64,000 bases of DNA from a phage, in the sequence record NC_104726.1; one strand, given 5' to 3'. Under the pieces are notes generated by a model, which was given only the letters and a program-made list of their open reading frames with translations, ran no database searches and was not told the DNA's origin. The translations under genes and the position numbers were made by a program. Within the stretch, counting starts at the first letter, position 1. Each line of letters starts with the position of its first letter. Below, piece by piece: positions 2,740 to 51,437 of the stretch.

Positions 2740-3675
2740 ATGACAAATGAGGAACATATAATGAAGTATTTTAATGCAGACGACCTAGTTGACAAAGGTC
2801 TTGCAACCAGTAGGTATTACCCAGATCTCGGGTTAAAGATCTATAAATATGCTAGAAAAGTATTTTACAACAATTTATGGCATTTGTCCCCTCGTTTACT
2901 GGAGTGCCGAGGCATTGTTGTAGGTAATGAAGGAAATGTTGTGGCATGGCCCTTCACAAAAGTGTTTAACTTGGGAGAAAACTCCACCAACCTGCCTGAC
3001 AATAAGCTTGTGACTGCGGTAGAGAAAAAGAACGGATTCCTTGGTGTGGTATCATCTCATAAAGGTGACCTATTGTTCTCAACAACCGGGTCTCTTGATT
3101 CTCCATATTGTAACCTTGCAAAGGAAACCATCCAAGAGCAATGTGGTAATTTAGATCTTATCAAGAAGGTTATGGGCAATGAAAACATGACATTCATGTT
3201 TGAAATTTGTCACCCTTCAGATCCGCATATTGTTCAAGAAGACCATGGCGCATATTTGATAGGTTGCAGATATAATGATTCTGGAATAATGCTACCAGAA
3301 GCAGCTTTAGATGGGATTGCCAAATACCTTGGTGCAAAACGTCCTAACACTGTGCGTGAAATTCCGTTCAGCTATGCAAAAGAATTAGCTGCAGAAACAA
3401 GAGGTGAAGGGTATATGATTCGTAAGCCTTACTACCCTTATGATCTGCAGCTGAAGATCAAGTCTCCATACTATCTGGCACGGAAGGCAGTAATGAGGGG
3501 TAAAGCTTGGAAGATTTGGGATGATGATATCTTTAAACGTGTTGACGAAGAGTTTTACGGTATGGTAAAATTTATTCGTAGCAACTATACAGAAGATGTG
3601 TGGAATTGCTTATTAGAGCAGGAGCGTCGTGAGATACTGGACTACTATTTCCACAACGAGGACTATATGCAATGA
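2740..3675 (+). CDS. RNA ligase (covalent nucleotidyltransferase, Rnl/Trl1-like)
   Basis: Motif I K-K-N-G (EKKNGFLG, compare Trl1 KANG), motif III FMFEI, motif IV EGYMIRK, motif V LKIKS; divergent from the kinase-phosphoesterase operon. Confidence 0.7.
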   Translation: MTNEEHIMKYFNADDLVDKGLATSRYYPDLGLKIYKYARKVFYNNLWHLSPRLLECRGIVVGNEGNVVAWPFTKVFNLGENSTNLPDNKLVTAVEKKNGFLGVVSSHKGDLLFSTTGSLDSPYCNLAKETIQEQCGNLDLIKKVMGNENMTFMFEICHPSDPHIVQEDHGAYLIGCRYNDSGIMLPEAALDGIAKYLGAKRPNTVREIPFSYAKELAAETRGEGYMIRKPYYPYDLQLKIKSPYYLARKAVMRGKAWKIWDDDIFKRVDEEFYGMVKFIRSNYTEDVWNCLLEQERREILDYYFHNEDYMQ

Positions 3676-4022
3676 AGAAGTGGATTGTGTGGCTTGATGA
3701 TTTTAGAGATCCGTCAGATTATGGACTCCCAGACGCTCTGTGGCTAAAGAATTCTTCTGAGTTTATGGATTTTCTTAATGATAAGAGAAAGCTCTACAGA
3801 CGCGTATCTGAGTGGTATTTTGACAATGATCTAGGTGAAGTGCTTGAAGGGTACGACTGCTTCTCTGCGCTAGAGGAGAAACTTGTATTCGGAAAGCCAC
3901 CACTTATTGACAACGTGATTATTTTCGTGCATACTTCTAATCCATCGGCAGCTCGTAAATTTATGCTTGCTGCTGACTCATTCAAGAAGTTTGGAATAGA
4001 GATTAAACAAAACATCTACTGA
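3672..4022 (+). CDS. hypothetical protein (116 aa)
   Basis: ORF overlapping upstream stop (ATGA); between RNA ligase and Sir2 genes. Confidence 0.5.
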   Translation: MKKWIVWLDDFRDPSDYGLPDALWLKNSSEFMDFLNDKRKLYRRVSEWYFDNDLGEVLEGYDCFSALEEKLVFGKPPLIDNVIIFVHTSNPSAARKFMLAADSFKKFGIEIKQNIY

Positions 4023-22201: not shown

Positions 22202-22480
22202 ATGAGCTGCGAAAAATCTTTTTTCATCATCATTTACGGTAAGGATAACTGCCCACATTGTGTCAGAGCAAAAGAATTTGCAATCAGCAAAGGTCTGCCT
22301 TTTGTATATAAGACACTTGGCGAGGGCTACACAAAAGAAGAGCTTATTGAGAAGTGTAGTCCAATCGTCCCCCGAACGTTGCCGCAGATCTTCTTAGAAA
22401 GCGATCTTGACAGTATCCATATAGGCGGTGCCGACGATTTCATCTCTTTTGTTAAGAATGGTTTTGGAGAGAAAAAGTGA
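22202..22480 (+). CDS. glutaredoxin/thioredoxin-like redoxin
   Basis: CPHC active-site motif near N-terminus, 92 aa, between nrdB and nrdD. Confidence 0.7.
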   Translation: MSCEKSFFIIIYGKDNCPHCVRAKEFAISKGLPFVYKTLGEGYTKEELIEKCSPIVPRTLPQIFLESDLDSIHIGGADDFISFVKNGFGEKK

Positions 22481-23337
22481 AAGTTGTAAAACGGGACGGT
22501 AGAGAAGAGTTCTATAACGGAATTAAGGTGATCAAGGCGGCAGAGTCCGCCTTACTTGAGTCTGGACATACTGAAGAAGAAGCTTACCGGATCGCTTGTG
22601 CGGTTAATGAAGTTGTTGCTAACAATCTGCCAACCGACCAGTGCACGATCTCTGTAAAAAATATCCATATCCTTGTTGAAGATGCTCTTATGGATATGGG
22701 TTTAAAATGTGCAGCCAGAGAATACATCCAGTATAGACAGACAAGAGATAATAACAGAGAGGCAGGTGGAAAACTGCTTGCAGATATTAGTGGCTTCTTG
22801 GATCGAACTTGTGATGAATTTACAAAAGAAAACGCAAATAAGCCTACTAATCATGTACACACTCATCGCGACCTGCTTGCAGGTATTCTTAGCAAACACC
22901 TTGCATCAACACAGATCCTGCCAGACCGTGTCTCCGAAGAGCACAATAAAGGCTTCATCCATGTGCATGATCTTGACTACTTGATCAGTCCGTTAACAAA
23001 CTGTTGCTTGGTAAATTATCCAGATATGTTGGAAAACGGATTCAACATTGGTAACGCCCATGTCAGTAAGCCGAAGTCAATAGGGGTTGCAACAACAATC
23101 CTTAGCCAAATCTCTAGTGCGGTAGCTAGTGCTCAATATGGTGGTCAGACTATGAGCCATATTGATCATTATCTGGCACAGTATGCTGAAGCGACCTATG
23201 AGAAGAACCTTAAATTTTGCCAGGAACATTGGTTGCCAGATGCTGAAACTGTTGCAATGCAAATGACAGATAAAGACGTGTTTGACAGCATGCAGACGTT
23301 GCTTTATCAGATCAACACACTAACCTCGGTAAACGGT
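22477..23337 (+). CDS. nrdD: anaerobic ribonucleoside-triphosphate reductase, exon 1
   Basis: ATP-cone N-terminus; ORF ends in stop TAA at the first three intron bases; T4 NrdD-like sequence continues in exon 2. Confidence 0.85.
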
Positions 23338-23594
23338 TAACAAACTGGCCGTTTTAAAACTCTGCTAACCTTAGTATGAGGGGTCAGCTGATCGCTGGCT
23401 AACGGGGAACGCTAAGGCGAAAGCTATGCCAATCCCGTGACTAGCTTCACAAGGAGTGAGGCGGTTGTAACGACTAACCTTTTGGTGTAGGGATTATGGA
23501 AGATTCCGAAACGCAGGGGTCTGATTAAGAATCACACGGTGTGATTTCAGGCAAGAGATAGTCTGGCCTTGTGGAAACATAAGGGTGGGGACCG
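23338..23594 (+). other. group I self-splicing intron (no internal ORF) in nrdD
   Basis: Exon 1 ends in U; internal guide gccguu pairs with exon end aacggu (U-G at splice site); intron ends in G; P/Q/S-like core elements; splicing restores ...SVNG|QTPF... in frame. Confidence 0.8.
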
Positions 23595-24857
23595 CAAACC
23601 CCTTTTATCACATTAAGTTTAGGACTGGATACCTCGGTCTTTGGTAGAATGATTACCAAAAATTACTTGAAAGTCCACAAAATGGGTCTTGGTGAAGAAC
23701 GGATCACACCTGTGTTCCCTAAAGTGCTGTTCTTCCTAGAAGAGGGTGTCAACATGAACCCTGAGGATCCTAACTATGATTTGAAACGATTAGCTCTGGA
23801 ATGCTGTGCAGAACGTATCTACCCTGACTTCGTATCTGTACCACTAAATAGAAAAGTGACAGGCTCGACAGATGGCAAAGTAACGAGCATGGGTTGCCGG
23901 AGTTTTCTTAGCAAATACAGTGACTTGGAAACAGGCGAGGAGAAATATCTTGGCAGATTTAACTTAGGCGTTGTTAGCCTTAACCTACCAATGATTGCGG
24001 CAAAAGCTAAGACGGAAGGTGTTGATTTCTTTGCAGTTCTTGACGAATACTTGGATCTTGCATACGAGGCTCACCTTGTAAGGGTTAACCGTCTAAAAGG
24101 AACAAAGGCAGGGCAGAACCCCATCATGTGGTGTGAAGGAGCTCTTGCTCGCCTGGATCCTGAAGAGAGTATTGATAAACTCTTCTATGACGGGTACGCT
24201 TCCATCAGCATTGGGTATATTGGTGTGTATGAAACCTGTCAGATTTTGGGTAGAGAGGGTGACAAGGCTTTAGCTCTTGGAATCCTTCAGCACATGAGAG
24301 ATGCTTGTGAGCGATACAAGAAGGAAAGTAGACTAGCGTTTAGCTTGTACGGCACTCCTTCTGAGAGTCTATGCTATAAAGCTGCAACCTGTCTGGATCG
24401 TGAATATCCGGAAGTGTTGAAGCACGAGCATGAATATCTCACCAACAGTTTCCATCAGCCAGTATGGATCAATAGCTCTCCTTTTGATAAGTGGGAGTAT
24501 GAGGAAGGTTTTGCTATGATCTCCTCCGGTGGCAACATCGGATACGTAGAGACACCTAACCTGAAAAACAACCTTGATGCTTTAGAGGCTCTTGTTGACT
24601 TCGGGTATAAACACATTATGTATTTTGGTATTAACCAACCTGTGGATAAATGTCTCAAGTGTGGTTTCTCTGGTGAGTTCAGTGCAACAGCTAAAGGGTT
24701 CTGCTGCCCTGCGTGCGGATGCCACGATGAACAATATATCTCAGTGATCCGAAGAGTGTCTGGATACCTTTCCAGTCCTAACTCCCGTCCTTACAATAAA
24801 GGTAAGCAAGCGGAAGTTATCGAGCGAGTTAAGCACTACGGAAGTTGTGGTTGCTGA
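23595..24857 (+). CDS. nrdD: anaerobic ribonucleoside-triphosphate reductase, exon 2
   Basis: Glycyl-radical motif RRVSGYL near C-terminus; zinc site CLKCGF...CPACGC; frame continuous with exon 1 after intron removal. Confidence 0.85.
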   Translation, partial: QTPFITLSLGLDTSVFGRMITKNYLKVHKMGLGEERITPVFPKVLFFLEEGVNMNPEDPNYDLKRLALECCAERIYPDFVSVPLNRKVTGSTDGKVTSMGCRSFLSKYSDLETGEEKYLGRFNLGVVSLNLPMIAAKAKTEGVDFFAVLDEYLDLAYEAHLVRVNRLKGTKAGQNPIMWCEGALARLDPEESIDKLFYDGYASISIGYIGVYETCQILGREGDKALALGILQHMRDACERYKKESRLAFSLYGTPSESLCYKAATCLDREYPEVLKHEHEYLTNSFHQPVWINSSPFDKWEYEEGFAMISSGGNIGYVETPNLKNNLDALEALVDFGYKHIMYFGINQPVDKCLKCGFSGEFSATAKGFCCPACGCHDEQYISVIRRVSGYLSSPNSRPYNKGKQAEVIERVKHYGSCGC

Positions 24858-24923: not shown

Positions 24924-26084
24924 GTGAGAAAACTTACAACCGAAGATTTTATAGAGGGGGCGAAAGCAGTTCATGGTGATAAATATGATTATTCCAAAGT
25001 CAAATATGTGGGTGCACACACCAAGGTTGTAATTATATGCCCTGAGCATGGAGAATTTAAGAAAACTCTTGGAGATCACCTCCGTAAAAAACAGGGTTGC
25101 CCAAAATGTCAGATTGAAGCAGAAAGAGCGGCTTCTGCTGAAAAATTTAAAGCGGAGGCCGAGGCTAAGTATAATTATAAATATGATTACTCTAAGGTAG
25201 AGTATGTAAATGCTAAAACTAAAGTTGTGATTGTTTGTCCTGTTCACGGCGAGTTTGAGCAAAAGCCTGATAACCATCTCCGCGAGGGGGGTTGCCGTAA
25301 GTGTGGAGGAACTGAGAGAAAGACTACTGAAGAGTGGATCGCTGAGGCAAAAGCGCTTCATGGCGATAAGTATGATTACTCTCTTGTAAATTATAAAACC
25401 GGTAATGATAAAGTGGAGATAATCTGTAATACATGTGGTGCTCACTTCCCACAAAGACCTCATGACCATGCACCAAGTGGAAAAGGTTGCCCCGAGTGCG
25501 GGAAGAAGAAGGTGGCCGAGGTTAGTAGGAAGACGCAGAGAAAGAAAGCATCTGAGGTAGCTAAAAGGTTTGAGGCAAGAGCCAGAGCTATCCATAAAGA
25601 TAAATACGATTATTCCGGGGTGGAATATGTTAATAGGGAGACAGAGGTCACTATCATCTGTCCGATTCACGGGGAGTTCACACAAAAACCGTTTGTCCAC
25701 ATCAACCAAAAAGCTGGCTGTCAAAAATGTGCTAAAGTCGGCTTCTTATCTCATGAACATGGTAGCCTTTATATCATGGTTGACGATCTGGAAGTACCAA
25801 CTATGATGAAAATTGGTGTGAGTGTCCGGGTAGATGAACGAAGAAAAGATGTGTTAAAAAGAGCTAAAAAAGCTGGTGCTAGATTCTCTGATCTACATGT
25901 TATAAAAACTTGGGAAGGAACAACAGACGACATGCAAACTTTAGAAAAAGCTATGCACCAAGCCTTGAGCCAATACAAAATCAACTTCACAGAGAAGTTT
26001 GATGGCTGTCGAGAGTTCTTCTACTACAGACCGGAGGTATTCGAGCTAGTAGAAGAACATTTGAAGAAATTTGCTAATAAATAA
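24924..26084 (+). CDS. zinc-ribbon-repeat protein with C-terminal T5orf172/GIY-YIG-like domain (putative free-standing homing endonuclease)
   Basis: Four about 60-aa repeats of HGDKYDYSxVxY...KVxIICPxHGEF...GCPxC; C-terminal KIGVS...REFFYY; GTG start. Confidence 0.6.
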   Translation: MRKLTTEDFIEGAKAVHGDKYDYSKVKYVGAHTKVVIICPEHGEFKKTLGDHLRKKQGCPKCQIEAERAASAEKFKAEAEAKYNYKYDYSKVEYVNAKTKVVIVCPVHGEFEQKPDNHLREGGCRKCGGTERKTTEEWIAEAKALHGDKYDYSLVNYKTGNDKVEIICNTCGAHFPQRPHDHAPSGKGCPECGKKKVAEVSRKTQRKKASEVAKRFEARARAIHKDKYDYSGVEYVNRETEVTIICPIHGEFTQKPFVHINQKAGCQKCAKVGFLSHEHGSLYIMVDDLEVPTMMKIGVSVRVDERRKDVLKRAKKAGARFSDLHVIKTWEGTTDDMQTLEKAMHQALSQYKINFTEKFDGCREFFYYRPEVFELVEEHLKKFANK

Positions 26085-26145: not shown

Positions 26146-26271
26146 ATGTCATCTGGTGGCTTTAAAGTAAAAATTTGTAAACACTGCGGTTGTAAGTGCA
26201 ATCTTCGTTGGTGCAAGGCACTGGACGATTTTATTTGGCATTGCCCTAAATGTGATGCGGAGTATCTATGA
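26146..26271 (+). CDS. small zinc-ribbon protein (41 aa)
   Basis: CKHCGCKC...CPKCD; AAGGAG SD; stop overlaps nrdG start. Confidence 0.4.
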   Translation: MSSGGFKVKICKHCGCKCNLRWCKALDDFIWHCPKCDAEYL

Positions 26272-26741
26272 ATATTGCCGGATACACAGAAATATCTTAC
26301 ACCGAAGGGCCAGGTATTAGAACTGCCTTATGGGTATCTGGGTGCCCACACGCTTGCCCTGGTTGCTTTAATCAGGCATTTTGGTCAAAAGATAAGGGGA
26401 GAGAGTTTACTGAAGAAGACTTGCAAAAAATCTTGTCAGATTTAGATAACCCGTCTGTGTGCGGTATCTCTCTGCTGGGTGGAGAACCCTTAGCATACTA
26501 TAATGAGCCAGATATTATTAGCCTGATGGAGAAAATTAAGGAAAAATTTGGTGACAAGAAAACTATTCTTGTATATACTGGGTTCACATTTGACCATATC
26601 TCTAGTAATGTTCTTAAACTGGCTGATATCATCATTGACGGTAAGTATGTAAAAGATTTACCAACCAAGAAACCGTTCCGAGGTAGCGATAACCAAAGAA
26701 TGTTTAAAAAAGTAGCAGGCGGTTGGGTCCAGGTAGACTAG
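26268..26741 (+). CDS. nrdG: anaerobic ribonucleotide reductase activating protein (radical SAM)
   Basis: GCPHACPGC cysteine cluster near N-terminus; immediately follows nrdD region. Confidence 0.85.
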   Translation: MNIAGYTEISYTEGPGIRTALWVSGCPHACPGCFNQAFWSKDKGREFTEEDLQKILSDLDNPSVCGISLLGGEPLAYYNEPDIISLMEKIKEKFGDKKTILVYTGFTFDHISSNVLKLADIIIDGKYVKDLPTKKPFRGSDNQRMFKKVAGGWVQVD

Positions 26742-50966: not shown

Positions 50967-51347
50967 TTAAAAATTATCGCCGTAAATCTTTCCGCTTTCT
51001 GCCCACACCACCACGCGGGGCATACTATCCCACACGTCTTGTTTTAGATTGAGCGCGTGCAATTCTTCAGTGGTGCCCATACCAGGCACGGGCTGATTGT
51101 ATACTGCAAAACGACCACCTGCATAATCATAGGCCAGGGTTAAATCACACTGAATCATCTTTTTGATCATGGCGTTGAGCATAGCGTTAGCCGCATACTG
51201 GTCACGTTTTAAAGGCAACTCTTTGATTAGTTTGCGATAGTTTTCAATGTGATCGCACACTGTTTCACGTGGAAGATCTTTCATATCCTCGCGAAAGGTA
51301 ACCAGGTTAAACATAACGGTGTCAATAGCTTTAGTAGTGTTTTTCAT
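50967..51347 (-). CDS. hypothetical protein (126 aa)
   Basis: AGAGGAAAACATT SD; leader hairpin. Confidence 0.5.
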   Translation of the reverse strand: MKNTTKAIDTVMFNLVTFREDMKDLPRETVCDHIENYRKLIKELPLKRDQYAANAMLNAMIKKMIQCDLTLAYDYAGGRFAVYNQPVPGMGTTEELHALNLKQDVWDSMPRVVVWAESGKIYGDNF

Positions 51348-51437
51348 AATGTTTTCCTCTTTGTTTTGTGTGGGGCAAACGTCTTGCCCCCCTTGAGTTT
51401 TAATATAGCAGGTTTTTAGATTATTGCAACACTTTAT

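Follow-up and report, generated by a model that had tools for sequence, protein, structure and literature searches.

The anaerobic ribonucleotide reductase gene nrdD of the phage analysed here, a Vequintavirus (rV5-like coliphage) represented by a window of 64,000 nt (the whole stretch of DNA under study), consists of two exons around a 257-nt insert at positions 23338–23594, and we conclude with a probability of roughly 0.93 that it represents a phage IA2-type group I intron. The intron is already known at the annotation level, from records of near-identical phages, and is an ordinary feature rather than a discovery. The main value of the finding lies in annotation: nrdD is intact once the intron is removed, whereas most public records of these phages break it into two or three pieces and add a 'hypothetical protein'.

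Exon layout and intron boundaries

The exons and the insert are arranged as follows:

22477–23337, plus strand: nrdD exon 1, from the ORF list and the sequence, ending ...AAC GGU
23338–23594, plus strand: group I intron of 257 nt without an ORF, placed by its exact absence from rV5 and naam, an RF00028 score of 29.8 bits, a custom model and covariation
23594, plus strand: terminal guanosine (omega G) at the 3' splice site, read from the sequence, the boundary being fixed by intron-less alleles
23595–24857, plus strand: nrdD exon 2, with first codons CAA ACC CCU (QTP...) and a gap-free T4 NrdD alignment over the junction

Exon 1 opens with a GTG codon that overlaps the stop of the glutaredoxin gene, at the position equivalent to the start of the rV5 nrdD CDS, and codes for the ATP-cone together with the N-terminal portion of NrdD, while exon 2 encodes the remainder, glycyl-radical domain included. 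The original prediction had described two nrdD ORFs in different frames, and the sequence agrees: the upstream ORF (22477–23340) runs in frame 1 to a TAA stop right behind ...TCG GTA AAC GGT, and the downstream reading frame is frame 3. The predicted figure of 257 nt is correct as the length of the intron but not as the spacing of the two listed ORFs, as the first downstream ATG, with which a 402-aa ORF in the frame of exon 2 begins, stands at 23649 and leaves the conserved residues QTPFITLSLGLDTSVFGR upstream, outside the listed ORF. Exon 1 does end in ...aacggU, at 23337, and excision of 23338–23594, whose last base is the anticipated G, fuses ...SVNG to QTPF... in frame as proposed, giving a product of 707 aa. 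Pfam places the ATP-cone at residues 1–91 of this protein, NRDD at 118–701 and Gly_radical at 580–682. The proposed contiguity with T4 NrdD is borne out by alignment to the solved structure (PDB 1h78; E = 9.5e-168) with no gap across SVNG|QTPF, and the spliced product is also gap-free against another NrdD of known structure (9d3x). The reading frames of both exons are open throughout, with 94–99% identity to intact alleles.

The intron boundaries are those originally proposed and are exact. The spliced junction aligns in one unbroken piece with rV5 (DQ832317) and with phage naam, whose alleles are both exactly 257 nt shorter between common exon anchors; the boundary cannot be shifted, because the neighbouring bases differ (T/C and T/G). 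The splice-site codon is GGU in intron-bearing alleles versus GGG in intron-less ones, in line with the need for a U at the 5' splice site. The first bases of the intron, UAA, form an in-frame stop. In the ORF list, no plus-strand ORF of at least 30 aa lies within 23338–23594, in keeping with the predicted lack of a homing endonuclease gene, and the sole ORF touching the insert is one of 44 aa on the minus strand with a TTG start.

Fold and family membership of the intron

The insert carries the following elements, P3.1 and P3.2 being our own labels:

23331–23354, plus strand: P1, exon AAACGGU (23331–23337) with internal guide GCCGUUU (23348–23354), 7 bp
23360–23365, plus strand: P3 5' strand CUCUGC, pairing with GCAGGG at 23513–23518; equivalent in T4 sunY
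23369–23399, plus strand: extra hairpins P3.1 (23369–72/23378–81) and P3.2 (23383–88/23394–99), by pair check
23400–23402, plus strand: J3/4 UAA, directly after P3.2
23403–23466, plus strand: P4-P6 domain ('P' and 'Q' elements), with P4 CGGGG/UCCCG, P5/P5a with a GAAA loop, and P6/P6a
23472–23476, plus strand: P7 5' strand GACUA, in the 'R' element GUUGUAACGACUAA, pairing with UAGUC at 23559–23563
23477–23507, plus strand: P7.1 (23477–79/23484–86) and P7.2 (23490–94/23503–07), by pair check; both covary and T4 sunY has the same layout
23513–23518, plus strand: P3 3' strand GCAGGG, with GAAAC just before it, as in T4 sunY
23519–23552, plus strand: P8 (23519–24/23547–52) with distal stem P8a, by pair check and covariation
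23553–23563, plus strand: J8/7 AAGAGA and P7 3' strand UAGUC ('S' element), by Rfam alignment, pair check and conservation
23567–23584, plus strand: P9 hairpin CCUUGUG-GAAA-CAUAAGG, by pair check and covariation

All core helices (P1, P3–P9 and P7.1/P7.2, with no P2) form with standard pairs, including the P3/P7 pseudoknot. The original prediction had pointed to P-, Q- and S-like segments, which were located in the insert together with the R element. It had also proposed an internal guide, gccguu, pairing with the end of exon 1 through a U-G wobble; the pair check recovers this strand in P1, closed at the 5' splice site by U23337·G23348 and extended by 2 bp (23338–39 with 23346–47), and U·G is the most frequent pair in this column across the intron family. 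Insertion of P7.1 and P7.2 between P7 and the 3' strand of P3 is characteristic of subgroup IA and is taken here as the mark of IA2 in the Michel-Westhof classification, and both helices occupy that place here, at 23477–86 and 23490–23507. The P3 of the Rfam alignment, in which the strand just before J3/4 pairs with CG-CAGGG, was rejected, as it contains mismatches and fails in the HNH-bearing form of the intron described below. CUCUGC/GCAGGG was adopted as P3; it agrees with T4 sunY and covaries at six of six pairs, with 94% of cells paired. P10 would amount to no more than 2 bp (CA/UG), and P9.0 too is weak; the 2-bp candidates for the two shift register between the intron forms, and both assignments are tentative. 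An unconstrained minimum-free-energy fold finds local hairpins (z-score −3.07, a modest value), pairs the P3 5' strand locally and misses P3 and P7, and is therefore unusable as a test of the intron.

A close known counterpart in the same host gene is the T4 nrdD (sunY) intron, of subgroup IA2, which encodes I-TevII. Its core runs in parallel with that of the window's intron: no P2, AAAA-P3-UAA, P4-P6, P7.1/P7.2, GAAAC-P3', P8, AAGAnA-UAGUC and P9, with P3 in the context AAAA-UCUGCC ... GAAAC-GGCAGA, and both introns start with UAAC. They differ in the stretch from P3 to J3/4, where sunY has neither of the two extra hairpins, and in size: sunY spans 1033 nt and carries a GIY-YIG endonuclease ORF within its 3' portion, whereas the window's intron has 257 nt and no ORF. 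A shared insertion site was considered and rejected: sunY follows nt 538 of T4 nrdD, while the position of the window's intron corresponds to nt 570, which is 32 nt further downstream.

The Rfam search proposed as a check on the original prediction failed at the curated threshold. Intron_gpI (RF00028) scores 29.8 bits against a gathering cut-off of 50, and at that cut-off no match to the intron was returned over the whole window; a permissive search matches the full-length model with an E value of 8e-6 in the local search and 1.1e-3 for the window as a whole. We also built a custom covariance model from three copies of the ORF-less intron, which gave 112 matches in 100 sources (phage contigs), T4 sunY among them at 39 bits. 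Only 3 of the 18 custom-model matches in 13 related loci coincide with an above-cut-off Rfam match. Because most of these matches also miss the cut-off, the sub-threshold score reflects insensitivity of the Rfam model rather than a defect of the intron, and genome scans that rely on the Rfam cut-off would under-call such compact phage introns. Cmscan misaligned the ORF-bearing relatives because of their large insert. The stronger full-model matches of the family span about 185–365 nt, so the predicted label 'minimal' is only relative for an intron of 257 nt.

Compact ORF-less group I introns of similar size with the same helices occur in uncultivated phages (IMG/VR contigs), with both post-P3 hairpins and their conserved GU...GC closure. 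They show little sequence similarity beyond the P4/P7 core, the conservation of P4 being partly by construction as the loci were gathered with a pattern that fixes P4. Those checked lie in other genes, among them ones for a GyrB/Toprim protein, the DNA polymerase III alpha subunit and a peptidoglycan-binding C39-like peptidase; the host genes of the closest family members are named from upstream exon domains only, and splicing at model coordinates gave imprecise 3' boundaries. The two-hairpin pattern can be seen in some 120 phage introns. In the covariation alignment P3.1 is 94% and P3.2 97% paired, the closing G-C and U·G pairs being invariant and the inner pairs covarying. We found no description of this compact two-hairpin class in the open-access literature searched. 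The P4-P6 domain is near-identical to intron cores from Listeria and Bacillus phages, and the P7 5' strand GACUA is close to invariant across the family.

Covariation supports the fold as a whole. The alignment of 103 distinct rows has 91.9% paired cells, a value somewhat inflated by the fitting of the alignment to the model, compared with 40–45% once the partners are slid, and 72 of the 74 base pairs vary on both sides in the alignment of custom-model matches. The window's intron agrees with the family at 38 of 39 near-invariant columns.

Predicted splicing and its alternatives

From these sequence features we infer that the intron is catalytic and is spliced. By the canonical group I pathway, the pre-mRNA would fold into the P1–P9 core, and free guanosine at P7 would attack the phosphodiester after U23337, held in P1 by its wobble with G23348. 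The exon-1 3'-OH, once freed, would attack after terminal G23594, joining the exons as ...AACGGU|CAAACC... and so allowing the full-length 707-aa NrdD to be translated; on unspliced RNA, translation would stop at the intron-opening UAA.

A decayed or protein-dependent intron, either no longer able to self-splice or dependent on a host or phage cofactor for it, and leaving nrdD poorly expressed or effectively a pseudogene, is very unlikely. It would accord with the missing endonuclease ORF and P2, the very short P10, the sub-threshold Rfam score and the lack of an intron match at the site in some two thirds of related phage records. Decay is nevertheless hard to reconcile with two open exons so close to intact alleles, with the retained family-invariant positions, or with an intron whose conservation is no lower than 98.8% over 13 records of different isolates and whose few substitutions among three aligned copies are all compatible with the structure.

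Less probable still is a split gene without splicing, in which the insert is kept in the mRNA and NrdD consists of two polypeptides that assemble after translation. Such a situation has been reported for NrdA of Aeromonas phage Aeh1, split by mobE (PMC7344957), and here the ATG at 23649 could open the second polypeptide; that codon, however, sits 54 nt inside exon 2 and its use would drop the T4-alignable QTPFITLSLGLDTSVFGR segment. The insert moreover holds a complete, covarying group I core, whose invariant nucleotides would not be expected to persist in a passive spacer. Finally, a frameshift mutation, sequencing artefact or pseudogene, which the different frames of the two ORFs might suggest, has a negligible chance of being correct, being refuted by the covariation and by a difference from intact alleles that amounts to one clean 257-nt group I block rather than an indel, 100% identical in seven independently sequenced phages.

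Related introns at the nrdD site

The intron is found 100% identical and in the same place in the BASEL phages HeinrichReichert (MZ501073), AlexBoehm and RudolfGeigy, and GenBank entries QXV79969.1, QXV75731.1 and QXV84261.1 are the exact product spliced at the 23337/23595 junctions. The boundaries in those records were set by comparative genomics, the sole statement made on them, which comes without structure, subgroup or splicing data (PMC8594841). In the BASEL records nrdD begins at the ATG that corresponds to 22690, leaving out the ATP-cone, and this start appears to lie 71 codons too late. The window's phage carries an extra gene behind nrdD that is absent from those phages. Our literature searches found no described Vequintavirus nrdD intron; the rV5 paper reports introns in the terminase gene only, and rV5 nrdD is intact.

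Among 120 related records, the ORF-less form is present in 13 and an HNH-bearing form in 28, with about 79 giving no intron match; rV5, naam and typing phage 14 are confirmed to be intron-less at the site. The intron is thus polymorphic for presence and absence at a single site among close relatives, and the locus offers a natural series for intron gain, loss and endonuclease turnover: the site may be empty or hold either the ORF-less or the HNH-bearing intron, and some phages have a second intron downstream.

The HNH-bearing sibling (in FV3, FFH2, slur16, EmilHeitz, isim, JEP1 and others) occupies the same nrdD site and shares its architecture with the ORF-less form. Its 797 nt include a 177-aa HNH_3/I-HmuI-like ORF in the P8 loop, lying in EmilHeitz and FV3 between the P8 strands GCUCUAU and GUAGAGU, and it is about 86% identical to the ORF-less intron in the alignable parts (5' core to P7, and J8/7 to P9). 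Compensatory changes between the two forms fall in P1, P3, P3.1, P6a, P8 and P9. In P1 of the sibling, exon CAACGGU pairs with guide GCCGUUG, an A-U to C-G change; its P3 is CUCUCC/GGAGAG, against CUCUGC/GCAGGG in the ORF-less form, and its P9 is CCCUGUG/CACAGGG. The flanking exon codons are ACC CCU UUU with the ORF-less form versus ACU CCA UUC with the HNH form. Because P7.1, P7.2, P3' and P8 are unrelated in sequence between the forms, with the P3 5' strand compensating, the ORF-less intron is no simple ORF deletion.

The ORF-less form, which encodes no homing endonuclease, would be unable to home alone for want of that gene, and may be inherited vertically or carried by exon recombination; alternatively, it may be mobilised by the HNH enzyme of its same-site sibling. 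It is a tentative and rather doubtful proposal, prompted by the unrelated P7.1-P8 region and the different flanking codons, that the ORF-less intron is a separate lineage and does not derive from the HNH-bearing one by deletion; it might persist by trans mobilisation or site immunity during co-infection with an HNH-carrying sibling phage. Apart from this, it would be one of a large class of compact phage group I introns with the two post-P3 hairpins, most of which the Rfam cut-off misses.

Two further observations concern the relatives. The ribosome-binding site of the HNH ORF, GGAGAG, is the 3' strand of P3, and the second intron seen in some related phages lies further downstream.

Intron Boundaries and the Predicted Spliced NrdD Protein

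The nrdD region (22477-24857) shares 99.6% identity with Escherichia phage HeinrichReichert, matches 120 records, nearly all Vequintavirus (rV5-like coliphages), and lies in the gene order nrdB, glutaredoxin, nrdD, nrdG. As originally predicted, two nrdD ORFs occupy different frames, with the upstream ORF in frame 1 and the rest of the gene in frame 3, and exon 1 ends in ...aacggU.

22477-23340, + strand: upstream nrdD ORF, GTG start, frame 1, with TAA directly after ...GUA AAC GGU

Removal of 23338-23594 (257 nt, G last) joins SVNG to QTPF in frame, as had been proposed along with a match to T4 NrdD. The resulting 707-aa protein contains ATP-cone, NRDD, and glycyl-radical domains and aligns gap-free over the junction with T4 NrdD (1h78, E 9.5e-168) and with a second solved NrdD, 9d3x. 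The predicted 257 nt holds as the intron length, but does not equal the spacing of the two listed ORFs. Natural intron-less alleles provide the decisive control for the boundaries: a synthetic spliced junction aligns unbroken to rV5, naam, and many others, and shared exon anchors are 83 nt apart in intron-less alleles versus 340 nt in the window, a difference of exactly 257 nt. Because the bases flanking each boundary differ, neither boundary can be moved.

The start codon is most likely GTG 22477, which overlaps the glutaredoxin stop, yields a complete ATP-cone (Pfam residues 1-91), and agrees with the rV5 annotation. In practical terms, public spliced nrdD annotations lack the ATP-cone because an internal ATG was used as the start; correctly spliced GenBank records of the BASEL phage collection begin at the ATG equivalent to 22690, removing 71 residues. 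Exactly spliced NrdD is already in GenBank for HeinrichReichert, AlexBoehm, RudolfGeigy, and EmilHeitz (the last with the long form), and the BASEL paper used comparative genomics for intron boundaries (PMC8594841). The group I intron call is therefore correct and already known at the annotation level. For this intron, our literature search found no published description of structure, subgroup, or splicing.

Intron Fold and the Compact Phage Family

In the proposed Rfam covariance check, the insert was unmatched at the curated threshold; Intron_gpI under permissive settings matched over its full length with 29.8 bits (E 8e-6 local, 1.1e-3 for the whole window). Weak Rfam matches elsewhere in the window, to Clostridium-PBP RNA (51345-51416, - strand, 34.3 bits, E 0.93) and rli43 (908-1155, - strand, 21.9 bits, E 0.44), fall far under the cut-off and are most likely due to chance. 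We derived the intron structure by hand and checked each pair; P2 is absent from this structure. The anticipated guide pairing with the exon end, including its U-G wobble, and the terminal G were both recovered.

Elements of the hand-derived intron structure
P1: exon AAACGGU with guide GCCGUUU, including the U23337.G23348 wobble
P3: CUCUGC 23360-65 with GCAGGG 23513-18
Two extra hairpins (P3.1, P3.2): 23369-81 and 23383-99, between P3 and J3/4 UAA
P4-P6 domain: P4, P5, P5a, P6, P6a
P7: GACUA 23472-76 with UAGUC 23559-63
P7.1 and P7.2: both present
P8 and distal stem P8a: both present
P9: helix closed by a GAAA loop
Omega G: 23594, intron 3' end

Rfam places the 5' strand of P3 elsewhere than CUCUGC. 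We rejected that placement because the T4 nrdD intron, sunY, has a parallel layout (AAAA-UCUGCC-UAAAA-P4 ... GAAAC-GGCAGA-P8, compared with AAAA-CUCUGC-UAA ... GAAAC-GCAGGG-P8 in the window) and because a sibling intron carries compensating CUCUCC/GGAGAG. The 3' tail GGGG (23587-23590) can also pair with exon-2 CCCC (23599-23602), so that the 3' splice site falls within a loop of 8 nt; the sibling has GGAG/CUCC at these positions, one compensatory change. This pairing may represent a genuine 3'-splice-site hairpin, or it may have arisen as a side effect of exon-codon co-conversion.

Scanning viral contigs with the pattern TAACGGGGAA-N(12-30)-CAATCCCGTG returned at least 120 stretches, whose upstream sequences also contain the two extra hairpins with a conserved GU...GC closure. 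A covariance model built from three ORF-less copies and the hand-derived structure, in which P7 stays unpaired since such a model cannot contain pseudoknots, gave 112 matches in 100 sources, mostly full-model; the stronger-scoring full-model matches span roughly 185-365 nt, and T4 sunY scores 39 bits. In the model alignment, which is itself fitted to this model, standard pairs fill 91.9% of cells (40-45% when 3' partners are slid 1-3 columns), both sides change in 72 of 74 pairs, and covariation occurs in every helix, including P3 and both extra hairpins. P7 is nearly invariant across the family, and P4 conservation is partly by construction since the collecting pattern fixes its strands. At near-invariant columns, the window intron has the family residue in 38 of 39. 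Phage introns of this class are very common, and the window intron is a typical example. Most members fall under the Rfam Intron_gpI gathering cut-off, and Rfam-based scans therefore under-report compact phage introns, losing most of the family in practice: among 13 related loci, an Rfam match at the cut-off coincides with only 3 of 18 custom-model matches, and family-model E values reach 1e-26 in loci L038, L110, L068, L049, L054, L107, L075, L062, L029, and L042.

Alleles at the nrdD Site and Comparison with T4

The ORF-less form occurs in 13 of the 120 related records at 98.8% identity or higher (seven at 100%), a 797-nt sibling in 28, and in roughly 79 no intron match was obtained; its absence at this site was confirmed for rV5, naam, and typing phage 14. 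The sibling is ~86% identical to the window intron in alignable parts (the 5' core through P7, and J8/7 through P9), whereas its P7.1, P7.2, P3 3' strand, and P8 are wholly different and a 177-aa HNH_3 / I-HmuI-like ORF lies inside the P8 loop. The ribosome-binding site of this HNH form, GGAGAG, is also its P3 3' strand, and both the start and the stop codon of the ORF overlap with strands of P8. The two forms differ in a compensatory manner in P1 (exon A/guide U to exon C/guide G), P3, the first extra hairpin, P6a, P8, and P9. At the splice site, alleles with the intron have GGU and intron-less alleles GGG, in keeping with the U required ahead of the 5' splice site. Synonymous codons likewise follow allele class (23595-23606 and the exon flanks in loci L002, L005, and L006), fitting co-conversion tracts or endonuclease target-site changes.

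Codons at the splice junction by allele class
Empty site: GGG CAA ACU CCA UUC
HNH form: GGU CAG ACU CCA UUC
ORF-less form: GGU CAA ACC CCU UUU

The T4 intron follows nt 538 of T4 nrdD, while the window intron lies at the equivalent of nt 570; the 32 nt between them rule out a shared site. Both have an IA2-type layout, but sunY lacks the two hairpins after P3 and carries a GIY-YIG ORF (I-TevII) in its 3' part. A second nrdD insertion is present in phage 241Ecol014PP (locus L003) and, by match pattern, in navn and the 'Campylobacter' phages A135/A147. In 241Ecol014PP it follows ...AUGGGU inside the conserved MGCRSF motif, and the sequence at its 5' end, GCUCAUGUAAAAUCUACCUAAACGGGG, is closely similar to T4 sunY, guide sequence included. 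The window lacks this intron, with the equivalent site after 23894.

2919-3680 of 241Ecol014PP: second insertion, a 762-nt group I intron with its own HNH ORF

Predicted Splicing, Mobility, and the nrdD-nrdG Interval

Judging from its anatomy, the window intron would splice by the standard two-step guanosine-initiated pathway, restoring the full-length nrdD reading frame; unspliced RNA would meet a stop at the UAA opening the intron. The intact, covarying core and two exons that are both open and conserved argue against a split gene expressed without splicing, against decay of the intron, and against a frameshift or pseudogene; a start at the downstream ATG would also lose 18 conserved residues. 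Without an endonuclease, the ORF-less intron should be unable to home alone; it may be inherited vertically, travel by exon recombination, or be assisted by the sibling HNH enzyme during co-infection.

24924-26084, + strand: 386-aa ORF between nrdD and nrdG (26268-26741)

This ORF combines repeated DUF723 / DUF4379 zinc-finger motifs with a MUG113 / T5orf172 domain at its C terminus and resembles a homing-endonuclease-type gene of the free-standing kind; T4 (mobC) and RB3 (segH) carry endonuclease genes at this position between nrdD and nrdG. The single other phage record with this ORF is that of E. coli O157 typing phage 14 (99.6%), whose nrdD is intron-less; HeinrichReichert has only a 117-nt ORF there.

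Approximately 19 'Campylobacter phage' records (MG065644, MG065655, MG065690, and others) have at least 90% identity to the window nrdD and are classed under Vequintavirus. The sole such record inspected, C2, is UNVERIFIED and unannotated, and the 'Campylobacter' host label of these records looks doubtful.
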